Shown: positions 17,836 to 62,530 of the stretch, one piece after another
Position numbering within the stretch: position 1 is the stretch's first letter
Layout of the letters: every line of letters begins with the position of its first letter
DNA from: a bacterium
Lineage (GTDB): Bacteria; UBP14; UBA6098
Assembly: GCA_023145965.1 (NCBI GenBank)
Contig: JAGLDC010000035.1
Span: forward strand, 14,462 to 78,461
Reading direction: 5' to 3'
DNA length: 64,000 bases
Made by a program: the position numbers and the translations under genes
Notes under the pieces: model-generated
The model's input: only the letters and a program-made list of their open reading frames with translations
Database searches by the model: none
What the model was told of the DNA's origin: nothing

Positions 17836-17862
17836 TTCAGCGCACAATTTTTGTGCGCTGAA
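17836..17862. promoter_or_regulatory. Perfect 12-bp-arm palindrome TTCAGCGCACAA-TTT-TTGTGCGCTGAA (operator-like), with a third TGTGCGC half-site at 17871-17877
   Basis: The inverted repeat was read directly. There is no U-run on either strand, so it is unlikely to be an intrinsic terminator. It lies about 120 bp upstream of the FN3-lipoprotein operon. Confidence 0.35.
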
Positions 17863-41055: not shown

Positions 41056-41442
41056 ATGCTTTCACTGTCTTCTTTTGCCGGATCGAATATCTATATCGCT
41101 TTCCATAATGTATCTGTGGATGAGTTTATACTTAAAGTCGATGACATTAAAATTGGGAATCAACCGACACACGATATTGGAATTTCGGGGGTTGAAGGTG
41201 TAGAGATTTTTGACATCTCTGGAAGACTTGCGTTACGATTGCTCGAAGACGAAAACACAGTGGAGAGTCCCTATACCTTCCCTCCCTCTGACTACCAAAA
41301 CCATAGCACATGTAGCTACTCCCCCGCAACCCACGAATTTACATGGATACCCTCGACATCTATCACATCCGGTGTTTATCTTGTTCGCGCACAAACCACC
41401 AATGGACAAACCGTATCAAAGTGCATTATATATTTGAAATAA
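41056..41442 (+). pseudogene. Orphan fragment encoding only a T9SS type-A sorting domain (no signal peptide, no catalytic or adhesin domain). Probable 5'-truncated remnant of a T9SS cargo gene
   Basis: The C-terminal about 80 aa (VEIFDISGRLALRLL...SGVYLVRAQTTNGQTVSKCIIYLK) match the sorting-domain pattern. The upstream 48 aa are not signal-like. Only 92 bp separate it from the divergent MATE gene start. Confidence 0.4.
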
Positions 41443-41463
41443 CTTCTTATCGGGAAAAATATC

Positions 41464-41492
41464 GAGGGCGGTCAGATACCGCCCTTTTTTTA
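41464..41492 (+). terminator. Rho-independent terminator (GAGGGCGGT-CAGAT-ACCGCCC-TTTTTTT)
   Basis: Hairpin followed by a T7 run, directly after the orphan fragment. Confidence 0.65.
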
Positions 41493-41515
41493 TTAAAGAC
41501 TTTTTTATTTGCACT

Positions 41516-41674
41516 CCGGGGGGCGTCGGAATTTCTAGTTTAGCGGAAAACCAGTTTTCCGCTAAACTAGAAATCGGCATCCGGCCGGAGCAAAATTCTT
41601 ATTTTTTTCGAAATAGTATCGACCGGCCGGACGCCCACGTTGCGCTTTTTGGCGCAACGCCCGACGCCCCCCTG
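41516..41674. repeat. 159-bp GC-rich nested-palindrome element (MITE-like or structured RNA) bounded by a 14-bp imperfect inverted repeat CCGGGGGGCGTCGG / CCGACGCCCCCC
   Basis: Internal perfect 21-bp-arm hairpin at 41531-41551 / 41554-41574. Two self-complementary TCCGGCCGGA boxes. A CGTTGCGC-TTTTT-GCGCAACG hairpin at 41638-41659. Local GC is far above the surrounding level. Confidence 0.5.
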
Positions 41675-41707
41675 CGATGGTTGTCGATACATCTTCTTAA
41701 CGCATGA

Positions 41708-42676
41708 TTATTTTATATGATTGAATGCCATAGCCGCAGCACCAATAACACCGCAGTTTTGGCCTTTTTCTGAGATGTCTATAGTACAGGAATTATACAA
41801 CGATTTCAGTGCCCTACAATGCGCTTCATTGCGAATAGTTTTTAGGAGAATATCTTTGCCCCAACCGGTTACACCTCCGGCGAATATTATACACTCCGGG
41901 TTGAGGATATTTATCATATTAGCTGTAGCAACACCAAGTGCGCGTGAAACCTCGCGTGTCACCTTAAGAGCAGTTTTATCTCCTTCTCGTGCTGTATCCC
42001 CGATCATTTCAGGGTCTAGGGAACCATAATCCCCACCCATTAAATCCCATAAGAGAGAGCCTTTATCCTTCTTAAGATATTCCCAGGCCAATGTTACAAT
42101 TCCTTTTGCCCCTGCATATGCCTCGATACAACCCCGATTACCGCAGGTGCATTGTCGTCCGTTCATTTCAATGACATGGTGCCCAATCTCCCCAGCACCA
42201 CCCCATTTACCACGGAATATTTGCCCATCGATTATTATTCCACCACCCACTCCTGTCCCAAGAGTAAAAATAACAAGTGGATCGGCACCTTTATGCTTAC
42301 CCCATAGATATTCGCCATATGCTGCTGCATTGGCATCATTATCGATGATTATCTTAGGGCCAAATACATCTTCAAAAATGCTCTTAACTCCAAGCCCGCG
42401 CCAGCTTTTAAGATTAGGAGAGGCTTCAATAATACCCTCTTCGATAGTAACTGCACCCGGGAAACCCACGCCCACACCGGCTATATCTTCGAGATTAGTC
42501 TCACAGTCTTCGAGAAACTCACAAATATCATCGATAATTATCGACAAGGCCACATCCGGAGGACTCTGCGGAGTCGGGAATATATCCATGTCAAGAATCT
42601 CGCCCGATCCATCCACGGTAGCTACCTTTACAAATGTCCCGCCGATATCTACTCCGAGTGTAATTTTATTCTCCAC
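41708..42676 (-). CDS. glcK: ROK-family glucokinase
   Basis: N-terminal LGVDIGGTFVKVATVD ATP-binding motif. ROK zinc motif CTCGNRGCIEAYAGA. Confidence 0.75.
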   Translation of the reverse strand: MENKITLGVDIGGTFVKVATVDGSGEILDMDIFPTPQSPPDVALSIIIDDICEFLEDCETNLEDIAGVGVGFPGAVTIEEGIIEASPNLKSWRGLGVKSIFEDVFGPKIIIDNDANAAAYGEYLWGKHKGADPLVIFTLGTGVGGGIIIDGQIFRGKWGGAGEIGHHVIEMNGRQCTCGNRGCIEAYAGAKGIVTLAWEYLKKDKGSLLWDLMGGDYGSLDPEMIGDTAREGDKTALKVTREVSRALGVATANMINILNPECIIFAGGVTGWGKDILLKTIRNEAHCRALKSLYNSCTIDISEKGQNCGVIGAAAMAFNHIK

Positions 42677-45242: not shown

Positions 45243-46100
45243 TCAGCTTACGAATGCCCTGAGATTCTTCGATCTGGTGGCATGCCTAAGACGCTTAATC
45301 GCTTTTTCTTTGATCTGCCTAACACGCTCACGTGTGAGACTAAATCTATTGCCTATCTCTTCGAGTGTGAGAGCCCTTTCTCGGTTAAGGCCAAAATAAA
45401 GAGATATAACCTCGGCCTCTCGTTCCGTAAGTGTAGAAAGAACCTTCTCGATTTCACTGGAAAGAGCTGTCTTAAGAAGTTCCCTATCTGGCGATGGTGA
45501 GTGATTGTCCTTCAGAATGTCCTTTAGGGAATTCGTATCGCCCTCTGTGAAAGGCGCATCGAGAGAAAGATGGCTATTAGAAATCTGTAAGGTATCGGAA
45601 ACCTCTTCCGCAGCCATATTGAGCTTATCAGCTATCTCTTTAGTGCTGGGAGAACGACCATACTTCTGCTCCAACTTAGAGTGTGCTTTGCCGATTTTAT
45701 GTAAAGCACCTACTCTATTGAGCGGAAGCCTCACTATCCTCGATTGCTCGGCTAGCGCCTGAAGTATAGACTGGCGAATCCACCAAACAGCATACGAAAT
45801 AAACTTAAAACCCCTCTTTTCATCAAATCTCTTGGCAGCTTTAATCAAACCAATATTCCCCTCATTGATGAGGTCGGCGAGAGATAATCCTTGATTTTGA
45901 TACTGTTTGGCGACGCTAACTACAAACCTGAGATTTGCCTTAATAAGCTTTGGCATGGCTTCTTTGTCGCCATTACGGATTCCGACTGCGAGCTTAAATT
46001 CGTCTTCTGCGGTAATGAGTGGAGTTTTGCCTATCTCCTTGAGGTAAATGTCCAATGAACGATCAACATCTCGTCCGCTGATCTTTCGCTTTTTGTTCAT
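45243..46100 (-). CDS. rpoD: Primary-type sigma-70 family RNA polymerase sigma factor (short, 285 aa, Bacteroidota SigA-like; regions 2-4 present, no region 1.1)
   Basis: Region 2 ([10 protein letters not shown]), region 3 and region 4.2 HTH ([28 protein letters not shown]). Confidence 0.75.
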
Positions 46101-56494: not shown

Positions 56495-58462
56495 ATGTTT
56501 ATCATTGTGGTGGTTTTGAGTTTATCTCTTTCTACTTTTGCTCTCGATACGCTATGGACTCCTATCGATATTCCAACACGAACCGGCGATTCACTTGCCG
56601 CAGATATCTACACCCTAGACTCGACCGCCGCAAAGCCGGTTATCCTAATTCAAACGCCATATAATAAGGCCGATTATAGATTCGCTTCATTTATGCTCGA
56701 CACCTCGGACACCAGCGGATTCTGGGATATTCAGCACTACAATTTTGTAATCCTGGATTGGCGAGGTTTTTACGCCTCGACTTCTGCGGGAAGCACCGGC
56801 TATGATCGCGGCCTCGACGGCTACGATGCGGTCGAGTGGATAGCCTCGCAAAGCTGGTGCAACGGCAAAATCGGCACCTACGGCGGTTCGGCACTCGGCG
56901 ATATTCAGTTCAAAACCGCGCACCACCAACCTTCGAATCTCCTTTGCGCCGCCCCATGGATAAAGACCTATAAAACCCGCTATACGAATTACTATTATGG
57001 CGGTGTTTACAAGAAAGAATATGTGGAAGCGCTTGATTTTCTGGGCTTTATAGCGACCAGTGTTATTCTTTCGCGACCCTTATATTCTTTTGTCTGGCAG
57101 TATATCGAAAATAATTCCGACTATCCCGAGGATTTCAAAGTGCCGATGCTCATGCTTAGCGGATGGTTCGATCATTATCCCGCAGATATTATCGAGGATT
57201 TTCACGAAATACGTTCGCGAAGCGATATTTCTGTGAGGGATAAACACAAGCTAATCATGGGGCCATGGACGCACAGCGGAGTCGGGCAGTCGATGCAGGG
57301 AGAACTTGAATATCCCGCAGCGGCTGATTTCGAGAAACCAATAACAAAAAAATTCTTCGATCACTACCTTCGCGGCGCGGATAATGATTATGAATCCGAA
57401 CCGGTAGGGCAATATTTTTTGATGGGCAGCAACATATGGATAGAAACGGATAATTGGTATTCGCTTATCGACGATACCGATACGCTTTACATTCATCAAG
57501 ACGGCCATCTATTTCCATTGGTTGCACCGATATGGGGCACACCTCCGGATTCGTTCGTTTACGATCCGCGTGATCCCTCACCAGCTTATGGGTTCAACAG
57601 ATTCAATCCAGCGGAACCGGGGCTTATATCCGGTCCGCGCGATATGCGCGATTCTGTGGAAAACCGGGATGACAATCTAATCTACTCGACCGATATACTA
57701 ACCGAACCTTTGACTATTATCGGAAGGATCAAAGCGAAATTATTCGTCGAGTCGAATTGCCTCGATACGGATTTCGCGATCCGCATCTCAGATGTCTATC
57801 CAGACGGACGCTCGATGATTTTAACTCAAGGCATTCTTAGAGGCCGTCTTCGCGATACGCTTGGAGTCGAACACCTTATGGTTCTCGATAGCATTTATGA
57901 AATCGATATTGAAACCGAGGTTATTGCGCAGACTTTTCTTCCGGGACACAAGCTTCGTTTAGTAATTACATCGTCAATATATCCTCATTTTCATGCGAAT
58001 ATCAACGATGGCGGTTCTATGTATGATGAAGGCGACACAACTGTTGCAACGAATTTCATTCATCATAACGAGGCACTGCCCTCCGCGCTGATCTTGCCAT
58101 TGAGTAGCGAGCTTCGCATTTCAGAGCGTTCAATAGCAACTAAACCGAACGATTTCTCCCTCCGTGCCTACCCGAATCCGTTCAATTCGGCGGTGCGGAT
58201 AAGCCTCGACTTCGGAAGCAAATCGGCGAAGGCGTTGAGCACGTCGCCCCCCAGCGCGTGCCGGGTCGAGATTTACGATATAAACGGACGGCGCGTCGCG
58301 GAAATTTCTGTTAACGGGAGCGAATCGGCGAAGGCGTTGAGCACGAACGCCTCCGGCGCGTGCCGGTGGCAACCCGACGCCGCAATCGGCTCTGGGGTCT
58401 ATTTCGTGAGAGCGCATTTTAATGATGCGACTGCATCACGCAGAATCTTGTATATAAGATAA
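56495..58462 (+). CDS. Secreted CocE/NonD (S15 X-Pro dipeptidyl-peptidase) family hydrolase with a type-A T9SS sorting domain carrying two in-frame GC-rich insertions
   Basis: Signal peptide. NFVILDWRGFYAS...GKIGTYGGSALG nucleophile elbow. The sorting domain YPNPFNSAVRISLDFG...VEIYDINGRRVAEISVNG...WQPDAAIGSGVYFVRAHF is interrupted twice by S(K/E)SAKALST....ACR. Confidence 0.65.
   Translation: MFIIVVVLSLSLSTFALDTLWTPIDIPTRTGDSLAADIYTLDSTAAKPVILIQTPYNKADYRFASFMLDTSDTSGFWDIQHYNFVILDWRGFYASTSAGSTGYDRGLDGYDAVEWIASQSWCNGKIGTYGGSALGDIQFKTAHHQPSNLLCAAPWIKTYKTRYTNYYYGGVYKKEYVEALDFLGFIATSVILSRPLYSFVWQYIENNSDYPEDFKVPMLMLSGWFDHYPADIIEDFHEIRSRSDISVRDKHKLIMGPWTHSGVGQSMQGELEYPAAADFEKPITKKFFDHYLRGADNDYESEPVGQYFLMGSNIWIETDNWYSLIDDTDTLYIHQDGHLFPLVAPIWGTPPDSFVYDPRDPSPAYGFNRFNPAEPGLISGPRDMRDSVENRDDNLIYSTDILTEPLTIIGRIKAKLFVESNCLDTDFAIRISDVYPDGRSMILTQGILRGRLRDTLGVEHLMVLDSIYEIDIETEVIAQTFLPGHKLRLVITSSIYPHFHANINDGGSMYDEGDTTVATNFIHHNEALPSALILPLSSELRISERSIATKPNDFSLRAYPNPFNSAVRISLDFGSKSAKALSTSPPSACRVEIYDINGRRVAEISVNGSESAKALSTNASGACRWQPDAAIGSGVYFVRAHFNDATASRRILYIR
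58221..58366 (+). repeat. Two direct copies (58221-58265 and 58323-58366) of a GC-rich hairpin-containing element AATCGGCGAAGGCGTTGAGCACG..GCGCGTGCCGG embedded in-frame in the sorting-domain coding region. A third degenerate copy lies at 60287-60349
   Basis: Direct sequence comparison. Each copy contains a GGCG(G)TT...AACGCC stem. Local GC content is much higher than in the flanking coding sequence. Confidence 0.5.
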
Positions 58463-58622: not shown

Positions 58623-60275
58623 ATGAGTCGAAAAACATTTATTGCAGCAGTTGTTTGCTGTTGCGCCTTTTCTGTCATTGCGGAAGTTAAACAAATTGGA
58701 TTCATGACACAGGGAATATCGCATTCGACATATGATAATATGACGTCTGTGCTCGAAAGCGCAGATTTTCATTGCGAAATCCACGAGTTTTGGGATTTCA
58801 CTACTGCAACAGCCGATACCTTCGATTCGCTGGATATTTTTATCGTCCCTAATGCTTCGTATCTAACCACTCCGGACGCCATACGCGATCATTTCGGGCC
58901 GATCATACGCCCATGGGTCGAGTCCGGTGGTTTGTTGATTGTTTTTTACAGGGTTGGCATCTGCTTCATCAACGATGTCAGCCTTTCGCGAATCGGCGAC
59001 TATTCCTCCTTCGACAGCACGCTCTATATTGCAGATGCTGGCCATCCGGTTGCCTCCGGGGTTGATCCCTCTTTCCTTGGAACCGGTAATTGTTGCATTA
59101 CAGACGATTGCCCCGATTACACTCCAATTCTAACAAATCATGCCGAAATACGCGTTAACTCGGGATTCGAAGAACTTGTCTCCGGTTGCGTTGTCTTTCT
59201 CGGATGGGATTATACATTCCGTTCGGAAAATCAAGATTCAATTTTCACGAATGCAATTCGCTATTGGTCGATGGTTTCCGAAGGCCCGATTTGCAGGAGT
59301 GTTTTCCCTCACGATGGCTCCTGGGTTTCATCGGACACGGCAATTGTGCTGGATTTCTTCGACTCCGATGGTCTCGACGCCGCGACAGCCTCGGTAATCG
59401 TAAACGGTGTTACCTATAGCGTTCTCGATCCTGAGTTGACCATATCCGGTGATAGCCTTATTTTCGAACCTACAACATCCTGGGTCGATGGCGATACGAT
59501 CACATTCGAACTTGTGGGTATCGAAGACGCACTCGGTCACGAATCCCCAGACAGCGGCCTCAGTGTAACATATTATATCGATAAAGCAACGCCGTTTATT
59601 ACATATCGCGAACCCGACTCTGCAGTCGTTTTCACCGAGACGCCGACCGGCGCACTCATTCGTTTTGCGGATGCTGGTTGCGGTATTGACAGCATTGGCT
59701 GGAGCCTTAATATCGAGGGCGTCGATGTCGATCCTTCCGGTGCTGGGGTCTATCTCGAAGGCGATTCTACGGTGATCTTGGATTTTGCTAGCGCGGGGAT
59801 ATCCATTACTTCGGGCGATACTGCGTTTATTTCGCTTTCATTATGGGATGCACCGGATGTCGGCGCGGCGAATACTGTGGAACTATCCTGGTGGTTCCTC
59901 GTAGCCACCGGTATCGCGGATGTAGCCACGCCGGATAATTTTGCAATCTCGGCGTATCCGAACCCCTTCAATTCGGCGGTTACAATTTCTTTCGACGGCA
60001 TAGGGGCAATTCATGAATTGCCCCTATGCGTGGAAATCTTCGACCTCGCCGGTCGGCGCGTAGCGCGTTTGCCCTCACCCTCGGTCCCTCTCCCAGGGGG
60101 AGAGGGAGGGAATTCCTTCTCCCTTTGGGAGAAGGTGGCCGAAGGCCGGATGAGGGCCGAATATATCTGGCAACCCGACGCCGCAATCGGTTCCGGCGTC
60201 TATCTCGTCCGCGCAACATTTCCGCAACAGACGACTTCAGCCGCCTGCACGAAGCGGGTGGTGTATTTGAAATGA
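58623..60275 (+). CDS. Secreted hypothetical protein with a type-A T9SS sorting domain that carries a palindromic GC-rich insertion
   Basis: Signal peptide. No recognisable catalytic domain. The sorting domain YPNPFNSAVTISFDG...VEIFDLAGRRVA[RLPSPSVPLPGGEGGNSFSLWEKVAEGRMRAEY]IWQPDAAIGSGVYLVRATF. The 3' end is about 80% identical at the DNA level to the 3' end of the preceding gene. Confidence 0.55.
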   Translation: MSRKTFIAAVVCCCAFSVIAEVKQIGFMTQGISHSTYDNMTSVLESADFHCEIHEFWDFTTATADTFDSLDIFIVPNASYLTTPDAIRDHFGPIIRPWVESGGLLIVFYRVGICFINDVSLSRIGDYSSFDSTLYIADAGHPVASGVDPSFLGTGNCCITDDCPDYTPILTNHAEIRVNSGFEELVSGCVVFLGWDYTFRSENQDSIFTNAIRYWSMVSEGPICRSVFPHDGSWVSSDTAIVLDFFDSDGLDAATASVIVNGVTYSVLDPELTISGDSLIFEPTTSWVDGDTITFELVGIEDALGHESPDSGLSVTYYIDKATPFITYREPDSAVVFTETPTGALIRFADAGCGIDSIGWSLNIEGVDVDPSGAGVYLEGDSTVILDFASAGISITSGDTAFISLSLWDAPDVGAANTVELSWWFLVATGIADVATPDNFAISAYPNPFNSAVTISFDGIGAIHELPLCVEIFDLAGRRVARLPSPSVPLPGGEGGNSFSLWEKVAEGRMRAEYIWQPDAAIGSGVYLVRATFPQQTTSAACTKRVVYLK

Positions 60276-60497
60276 CGCCGACTCCGCCAAAGGCGGTTGA
60301 GGCCAAACGCCCGTCGGCGCGTGCCGACCGAAACGGGTGGTGTATCTAAAGTAGTATTATGTCATTAGATTACAGATTTAGTTGAGACCTTAGGTTAAGG
60401 CCGCAGTTGTGGTAATCAGGTATCAAAATTGCTTCCTCATTGGAAGGACATCGATTATTTCTAATACCCACTACCTTTTAACTTTTTAAATTATAAC

Positions 60498-62369: not shown

Positions 62370-62530
62370 CATCTCGCTGTCACGATTTTTGCTATTTTTA
62401 AGTTTTTGGTAGTAATATACATTTTCCCGCGCAAAAATCCCCATCGACCACCCCTCTGTCACGAAATTTGCATAGCGGGCAAATTTCGTGACATCGTCCT
62501 TCCCCGCGCCAGCGAGGGTTTTTTCTGGCG
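62370..62530 (+). promoter_or_regulatory. Intergenic element copy 2: same TGTCACG-ATTT-TTGC core as copy 1 plus a 37-bp perfect palindrome TGTCACGAAATTTGC-ATAGCGG-GCAAATTTCGTGACA, C-rich tract and T-run
   Basis: Shared blocks with 52276-52392. The palindrome repeats the same half-site in inverted orientation. It sits between pyrE and moxR. Confidence 0.4.

Follow-up and report, generated by a model that had tools for sequence, protein, structure and literature searches.

The stretch of DNA analysed here, referred to as the window, comprises 64 kb of a MAG from a South China Sea cold seep, and its approximately 30 ORFs are housekeeping or secreted-protein genes. Between two convergent reading frames of the window lies a palindromic element, at positions 41518-41672, which is bordered by the following features.

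41056-41442, plus strand: orphan ORF of 128 aa, containing little beyond a T9SS C-terminal sorting domain and convergent with the ROK gene
41464-41492, both strands: bidirectional intrinsic terminator, terminator-like on either strand, located between the orphan sorting-domain ORF and the element and outside the latter
41708-42676, minus strand: ROK-family sugar kinase gene (PF00480, E value of 2e-65)

The conventional terminator that the initial annotation reported upstream of the element proved to be real and to be bidirectional; a gap of about 24-25 bp separates it from the element. On the opposite side, the ROK stop codon is found 36 nt from the closing stem of the element. Reading frames across the element are short or contain stop codons, and the element has no coding capacity. 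The initial annotation allowed for a reverse transcriptase or integrase that might have been missed nearby; among the approximately 30 ORFs of the window there is no transposase, RAYT, integrase, invertase or reverse transcriptase. A retron ncRNA was considered as well and rejected because no reverse transcriptase is adjacent, the neighbouring genes being, apart from ROK and the sorting-domain ORF, those for MatE, an OmpA-like protein, a CN hydrolase and sigma-70.

The orphan ORF matched Por_Secre_tail only weakly, but it matched a purpose-built HMM of the CTD with an E value of 3.5e-24 and is 34% identical over 83 aa to the sorting domain of a peptidase encoded at locus L009. It contains a complete sorting-domain core, without the YPNPF start of the domain and without a passenger domain, and in a relative its place convergent with ROK is taken by a 942-aa C10 peptidase. 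The order of the CN-hydrolase, OmpA-like and ROK genes is kept in relatives whose ROK proteins are 61-71% identical to that of the window. The 3′ side of ROK represents a synteny breakpoint in every relative examined, with a different gene after ROK in each. The sigma-70 gene (45243-46100) is located upstream of the CN hydrolase gene in the window, and its counterpart in the P0002 organism (L003 5010-5867) converges on ROK. Among the relatives of the LysRS of the window organism, about a dozen are 59-80% identical and none of the others exceeds 52%; its ROK protein has no relative in a one-genome-per-species collection. Together, these findings point to a deep, poorly sampled lineage. An exact 44-mer of the long hairpin of the element likewise had no match in the one-genome-per-species contigs.

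The element itself constitutes a near-perfect four-way junction, in which a closing stem and three hairpins are joined with 0-1 unpaired junction bases. Its parts are given below, together with a candidate extension on its outer side.

41498..41517: GACTTTTTTATTTGCACTCC, probable outer extension according to a hand alignment to the main-family flank
41518-41529 / 41661-41672: closing stem P1, 12 bp, perfect (100% complementary), GGGGGGCGTCGG / CCGACGCCCCCC
41518..41529: 5′ arm of P1, GGGGGGCGTCGG, with the core GGCGTCGG that is the invariant signature of the family
41661..41672: 3′ arm of P1, CCGACGCCCCCC
41531-41551 / 41554-41574: long hairpin L, 21-bp arms (100% complementary) with 2 nt between them
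41576-41588 / 41623-41635: middle hairpin M, 13-nt arms (92% complementary, one mismatch)
41638-41645 / 41652-41659: short hairpin S, 8-bp perfect arms (9 bp in folds) with a T-rich loop

The two P1 arms are the sole two pattern matches in the window, and the stem becomes 14 bp long with one mismatch once positions 41516 and 41674 are counted in. The 21-bp perfect hairpin, the 8-bp hairpin and the outer inverted repeats noted in the initial annotation are thus all present. The two CCGGCCGGA boxes, which it had called TCCGGCCGGA boxes and taken for independent palindromes, are instead the two arms of hairpin M, whose loop of 34 nt (41589-41622) is AT-rich. The composition of the element had been described as very different from that of its surroundings; a contrast does exist, but it is modest (GC of 0.47-0.54 versus about 0.35-0.44 in the flanks).

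Folded with RNA parameters, the element reached -98 kcal/mol on the plus strand (z of -11.5) and -104.5 kcal/mol on the minus strand (z of -12.8), and none of 200 shuffles folded as well; with DNA parameters, the value was -68.2 kcal/mol (z of -12.8). A 160-nt sliding fold scan of the 64-kb window yielded only two extreme regions, namely the element and positions 60001-60240. The structure of the element is far beyond chance. The identical sequence was recovered in a second assembly of the same organism (Logan SRR13892591), and this, together with the existence of family members in other organisms, makes an assembly artefact unlikely.

In a sister organism, whose ROK protein is 69% identical (locus L006), an element starts 12 nt after the ROK stop codon and has the same sense, that of ROK. 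It carries the same closing stem as the window element around three hairpins of unrelated sequence. A scan of metagenomes with the closing-stem pattern GGGGGCGTCGG-N(103-133)-CCGACGCCCCC produced 66 loci. About 40 of these, plus six one-mismatch copies within the same loci, form a main family of elements of about 130 nt, and extraction and folding gave about 45 distinct copies with a common architecture and common termini. The main family comes mostly from one organism (assemblies OMKS01 and Ga0129302), which is that of L006, and dozens of copies are present per genome in the sister organism. The remaining matches of the scan were excluded, either as chance matches in GC-rich coding DNA (L017, L030 and L070 among them) or as simple long palindromes (such as L020, L022, L023 and L053). 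Two loci (L018 1779-1928 and L050 3848-3997) contain a 150-nt AT-rich element (41% GC), in which the same closing stem is lengthened to 15 bp and a long irregular hairpin takes the place of the three inner hairpins (28.7 bits with the covariance model R1 described below); it may be a distant relative of the family in another AT-rich organism. Six loci from soil metagenomes (L013, L025, L027, L042, L045 and L058) represent one recurring 135-nt GC-rich element with near-identical flanks, in which the same 11-nt ends are extended to GGGGGCGTCGGGAC around a single long irregular hairpin, and it was kept outside the family.

In their common orientation, main-family copies consist of P1 (12 bp), S, M (14 bp, loop of about 33-36 nt) and L (14 bp), with no unpaired junction bases. 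The P1 core is invariant in 39 main-family copies and conserved across all subfamilies. One subfamily copy, which resides in the same genome as the main family, has a compensatory change in P1 (GGCGGCGTCGG / CCGACGCCGCC) and three wholly different hairpins; in the Ga0272443 lineage, the hairpin with the large loop stands in third place and the long hairpins differ among copies.

A covariance model, R1, was built from 40 main-family copies and run against the window with filters off. It matched the window element over its full length (1-131) with 55.2 bits on the minus strand and 54.2 bits on the plus strand (E value of about 2e-9), the next-best match in the window scoring 11 bits. Hairpins L, M and S of the window element align to helices L, M and S of the model, L on the minus strand. 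In addition, the element has the closing-stem core of the family (GGCGTCGG / CCGACGCC) and its layout, i.e., three hairpins, 0-2 linker bases and a middle hairpin with a loop of about 33 nt. The window element is one diverged member of the cloverleaf family, and its membership is secure. Neither the pattern search nor R1 with filters off revealed a second copy in the 64-kb window. The two bit scores leave the sense strand of the window copy ambiguous. The minus strand, i.e., the direction of ROK, is mildly favoured as sense because the short-middle-long order is found there and because the minus-strand 3′ flank resembles that of the family: the reverse complement of GACTTTTTTATTTGCACTCC is identical to the main-family flank CGAGCGTGCTATTAAGAAAATC at 16 of 22 positions by hand alignment. 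That 41498..41517 belongs to the element as an outer extension is suggestive only.

Covariation statistics were calculated on 39-40 distinct aligned main-family copies; the mixed-strand alignment A4, which contains antisense rows, was left out. Standard pairs occupied 98.6% of the pair cells, and two-sided changes occurred in 20 of the 45 pairs (105 cells). Not one of 500 shuffles reached the observed pairing and covariation, and sliding the 3′ partner by 1-3 columns left only 36-48% of the cells paired. Folding (z of about -12) and covariation on homologs, which the initial annotation had proposed as checks, both spoke for a maintained structure. The loops of main-family copies are quite diverged and the stems are perfect. 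The pair census gave 1724 Watson-Crick pairs, 5 G.T, 7 A.C and 17 others, and wobble pairs were no commoner than other mismatches on either strand. Since wobble pairs show no excess, the pattern is as expected if the constraint acts on DNA or if the arms serve as templates for one another, and not as expected for RNA.

The non-coding copies are intergenic and occur in both orientations, including at sites between divergent genes. The four possible arrangements relative to the neighbouring genes were represented by 9, 9, 7 and 7 copies, which is random, and the orientation bias expected of a 3′ UTR element was absent among main-family copies. This occupation of all four arrangements disfavours a strand-specific untranslated-region element. 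In the sister organism, six copies were counted in 305 kb, or about one per 50 kb, leaving out those for which the loci had been fetched; against such a background, a single copy in 64 kb is uninformative on the copy number in the genome. We found no transposase or repeated mobilising ORF in 33 family loci, the sole repeated ORF family being sigma-54 response regulators. Flanks of up to 7 kb around the family copies were covered, and no lone P1 arms bracket a gene in these loci; the copies come without a promoter or terminator of their own. Alignment of the flanks of 35 copies revealed a degenerate extension to about 21 nt outside P1, with GATTTTC on one side and GAAAATC on the other. The same 35 flanks contain no consistent target-site direct repeat, and empty sites were absent from the material compared. 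The suggestion of a MITE-like element made in the initial annotation is thus supported in part, at the level of the family, with its about 45 intergenic copies sharing termini in either orientation; no target-site duplication, empty site or mobilising enzyme was found, and the window holds a single copy. A BLAST search of the element against plasmids and phages returned nothing or a 23-nt chance match, and the closing-stem pattern had no match in viral contigs. A viral-contig match to a 19-mer of the hairpin was dismissed as chance, as it falls inside a 1699-aa ORF. No description of such a family was found in Rfam or in the literature searched, an absence that is no proof of novelty. As far as these sources go, it is a previously undescribed family of cloverleaf palindromic DNA repeats, roughly 130-175 bp long, in one deep T9SS-bearing bacterial lineage.

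The model R1 also matched loci L009/L010 with 69.7 bits. The cloverleaf found there has the closing stem CCGGCGTCGGC / GCCGACGCCGG and three perfect hairpins (-87 kcal/mol), and it lies in frame within the gene of the ROK-convergent C10 peptidase (942 aa), in the part that encodes the sorting domain. The length of this domain is normal, and it shows no insertion when aligned to ordinary sorting domains. The conserved VQIFDVTGRLV is encoded by the M loop, and variable loops of the protein are encoded by the arms and the remaining hairpins. With this domain as the query, a protein search identified five more proteins or orphan ORFs (77-221 aa), all of which carry the cloverleaf in the coding sense (64-75 bits versus 25-47 bits on the other strand). 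The coding copies share the peptide GVGASDAR.GQVG.EI.D.SGRLVADL.VTNCG.PQFVPTP, and their M-equivalent loop encodes IFD..GRLV. Across the six coding copies, pairing amounts to 100% in M and L, 97% in S and 93% in P1. Compensatory changes, seen in four pairs, replace amino acids encoded by both arms, and a few G-U pairs occur. The adjoining orphan sorting-domain ORF, to which the initial annotation drew attention, is therefore relevant, as the family has in-frame members inside sorting-domain coding sequences. The idea that all sorting-domain coding regions are structured was rejected, five of the six in the window having ordinary folding energies. Some fragments appear to be on their own: at L077/L078 4001-4246 and L081 354-587, orphan ORFs of 77-81 aa extend from the cloverleaf, or from just before it, to the end of the sorting domain. 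One of them is located between a DUF2089 operon and prfA, and upstream of the L081 ORF there is a frameshifted YPNPFN; such cloverleaf-bearing fragments of sorting domains apparently persist in isolation.

When a profile of the coding copies, based on sequence only, was used as the query, main-family copies were matched in the same sense, with E values down to 3e-7. Moreover, codons for (A)VTI(S/F) and PEKS occupy, in the coding copies, the places of the main-family flank motifs GATTTTC and GAAAATC. Given the same-sense matches and the corresponding flank motifs, homology between coding and non-coding copies extends over about 175 nt. As the loop motif is an ancient and widely conserved part of the sorting domain, protein conservation suggests that the repeat descends from a sorting-domain segment rather than the reverse.

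Collectively, these results make it probable, in our judgement, that the window element is a non-coding member of a dispersed cloverleaf family, which spread in the manner of MITEs or REPINs, shares ancestry with a sorting-domain coding segment and is situated here in the 3′ UTR of ROK. The family would descend from, or share ancestry with, a T9SS sorting-domain segment and would have spread as a non-autonomous MITE/REPIN-like element. As has been proposed for REP/RAYT, a trans-acting protein may recognise the fixed closing stem together with the junction in its folded state, be it in single-stranded DNA or in a cruciform, and the perfect arms may be restored by mutual templating and repair or by selection on the fold. 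Because the window copy sits between the ROK stop codon and the bidirectional terminator, it would be co-transcribed with ROK as a very stable 3′ UTR structure. By analogy with REP elements, the most likely local effect would be protection of the 3′ end of the ROK mRNA or damping of read-through. Counting against a mobile repeat, no target-site duplication or empty site has been established and the 64 kb contain one copy, and perfect stems in the face of diverged loops would be no less expected under selection for a host function than under selfish spread. A more specific version can be offered tentatively: a sorting-domain segment with a fixed closing stem and self-templating hairpins may have become the substrate of a structure-specific DNA enzyme, and would now exist in two states, one in frame and one non-coding and freely spreading.

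The element might alternatively act as a structured RNA, either as a cis element in the ROK 3′ UTR (stabiliser, terminator or insulator) or as a member of a small RNA gene family. The ROK transcript must cross it before the terminator, its fold is very stable on either strand, the copy in the sister organism has the same position and sense after ROK, covariation is strong, and the coding copies, with their few G-U pairs, are necessarily transcribed in sense. However, there is no Rfam match at the gathering threshold in the window or in 14 family loci, and a permissive threshold gave only sub-threshold chance hairpin matches in 41300-41900. The random orientation to neighbouring genes with its divergent-gene sites, the lack of wobble enrichment (5 G.T and 7 A.C versus 1724 Watson-Crick pairs), a closing stem fixed in sequence instead of covarying, and the lack of attached promoters or terminators point away from RNA too. 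A structured ncRNA, one of the readings proposed in the initial annotation, with no Rfam match, no orientation bias and no G-U excess on either strand, therefore appears unlikely.

Quite unlikely, in our view, is that the element is an immobile relic, i.e., the decayed middle of a sorting-domain coding sequence left by a rearranged secreted-protein gene that was once convergent on ROK. Such a gene does exist in the P0005 organism, whose ROK-convergent 942-aa C10 peptidase has the cloverleaf in frame in its sorting domain; in the window this place is taken by nothing but the orphan sorting-domain ORF, gene order is disrupted immediately behind ROK in all relatives examined, and other sorting-domain 3′ ends in the window bear duplications and palindromes. 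Yet the orphan ORF possesses its own complete sorting-domain core without a cloverleaf and is separated from the element by the terminator. The preferred sense of the element is opposite to that of the ORF, its flank resembles the non-coding family flank in the hand alignment, and it is not followed by the remainder of a sorting domain (IWQP...SGVY...YLK). Dozens of non-coding copies at unrelated sites in the sister organism argue further against a local remnant. A site-specific recombination site, be it an attC-like folded site, as the initial annotation had suggested, or a segment invertible between the 12-bp inverted repeats, would account for invariant, sequence-specific terminal inverted repeats around a variable structured interior and for the one lineage with a changed hairpin order and a long hairpin that differs among copies. 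The attC sites are indeed similar in being imperfect inverted repeats of 60-140 bp with conserved ends and an interior conserved in structure. Nevertheless, this reading is very improbable: the ends are GGGGGGCGTCGG / CCGACGCCCCCC and there are no RYYYAAC/GTTRRRY core sites (R/L core boxes), no extrahelical bases and no cassette array, the copies being solitary and dispersed; the stems are perfect and not bulged, and neither the window nor the surroundings of family copies encode an integrase or invertase.

With regard to known systems, REP/REPIN elements and bacterial MITEs appear to be the closest parallels to the family, and the Rickettsia palindromic elements (RPEs) are reminiscent of its coding relatives. 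REP/REPIN elements are likewise short, GC-rich, intergenic palindromes with no coding capacity, often located in 3′ UTRs; their copies number from tens to hundreds, and RAYT (TnpA-REP) transposases mobilise them. Their hairpins are maintained through compensatory changes (PMC3116915), and they are thought to be recognised as folded single-stranded DNA (PMC8266576). In contrast to the single hairpin or doublet of REPs, the cloverleaf family forms a four-way junction of three hairpins and a fixed 12-bp closing stem; it has no GTAG-type motif, no RAYT gene was seen in its flanks, and it has in-frame coding relatives. Bacterial MITEs (Correia, ERIC, RUP and QMITE; PMC10969869) resemble it in their length of 100-200 bp, terminal inverted repeats, multiple copies and intergenic location, and their transcripts fold stably and can affect the expression of neighbouring genes (PMC10969869). 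However, neither a target-site duplication nor a parent insertion sequence has been identified for the cloverleaf family, the element is GC-rich and not AT-rich, and its interior covaries so as to keep three nested perfect hairpins, which goes beyond conservation by descent. The RPEs, of about 150 bp, are found between genes and also in frame in genes without destroying them (PMC10969869), and share with the cloverleaf family this presence of palindromic repeats both in intergenic and in coding sequence. RPEs add an extra peptide to unrelated proteins, whereas the coding cloverleaf copies are the normal core of one domain. Since these copies encode a normal sorting-domain core together with the loop motif, an origin from the domain is suggested rather than an insertion into it.

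Parvovirus (AAV) terminal repeats consist of small palindromes nested in a larger one, with a branched fold, and the GC clusters of yeast mitochondria are GC-rich mobile palindromes in AT-rich DNA that are sometimes in frame in a gene. Both (PMC4478555) are alike in form only, their hosts and replication mechanisms being unrelated.

Palindromic repeats such as REPs, MITEs and RPEs are common in bacteria, and their origins and mode of recognition are mostly unknown. In the cloverleaf family, the combination of an invariant closing stem of 12 bp with freely covarying helices beside it suggests a specific protein partner that recognises the sequence as well as the fold, the near-pure Watson-Crick compensation points to a constraint on DNA and not on RNA, and the homologous in-frame copies in a defined protein domain point to the source of the repeat. 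If the link to the sorting domain is true, it would represent a rare traceable birth of a repeat family from coding sequence; alternatively, a nucleic-acid structure may be selected inside a secretion signal. Were a mobile element indeed derived from a secretion signal, sorting-domain cassettes could possibly be moved or exchanged between genes. For annotation, the family accounts for spurious small ORFs in these genomes and for their orphan genes that consist of a sorting domain only.

Palindromes and repeats also accompany other sorting domains of the window. The gene at 58623-60275 encodes a second sorting domain that contains GC-rich perfect palindromes in frame, at 59998-60029 and 60072-60160. 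The former makes up a hairpin (arms of 16 bp) and closely precedes the VEIFDLAGRRV motif. The latter, just after the motif, comprises two or three hairpins enclosed by a closing stem (GCCCTCA / TGAGGGC) and encodes an extra loop of roughly 30 aa. Positions 59960-60200 fold at -124.4 kcal/mol (z of -6.9), and their layout matches that of the coding cloverleaf but without P1, R1 scoring only 11 bits. Just past the stop codon of this gene, at 60277-60352, there is a compressed second copy of its sorting-domain pieces, in which 60308-60322 repeats 60047-60061 and 60329-60350 repeats 60250-60271; the copy ends with RVVYLK and a stop codon and looks like the remnant of a duplicated 3′ end. In the gene at 56495-58462, a 52-nt direct repeat (58213-58264 and 58315-58366, 85% identical) flanks the VEIYDINGRRV motif of a third sorting domain, giving the peptide repeat SKSAKALSTSPPSAC / SESAKALSTNASGAC. 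Further perfect inverted repeats of the window are located at 62457-62493 (15-bp arms, 7-nt spacer) and at 17836-17862 (12-bp arms, 3-nt spacer).
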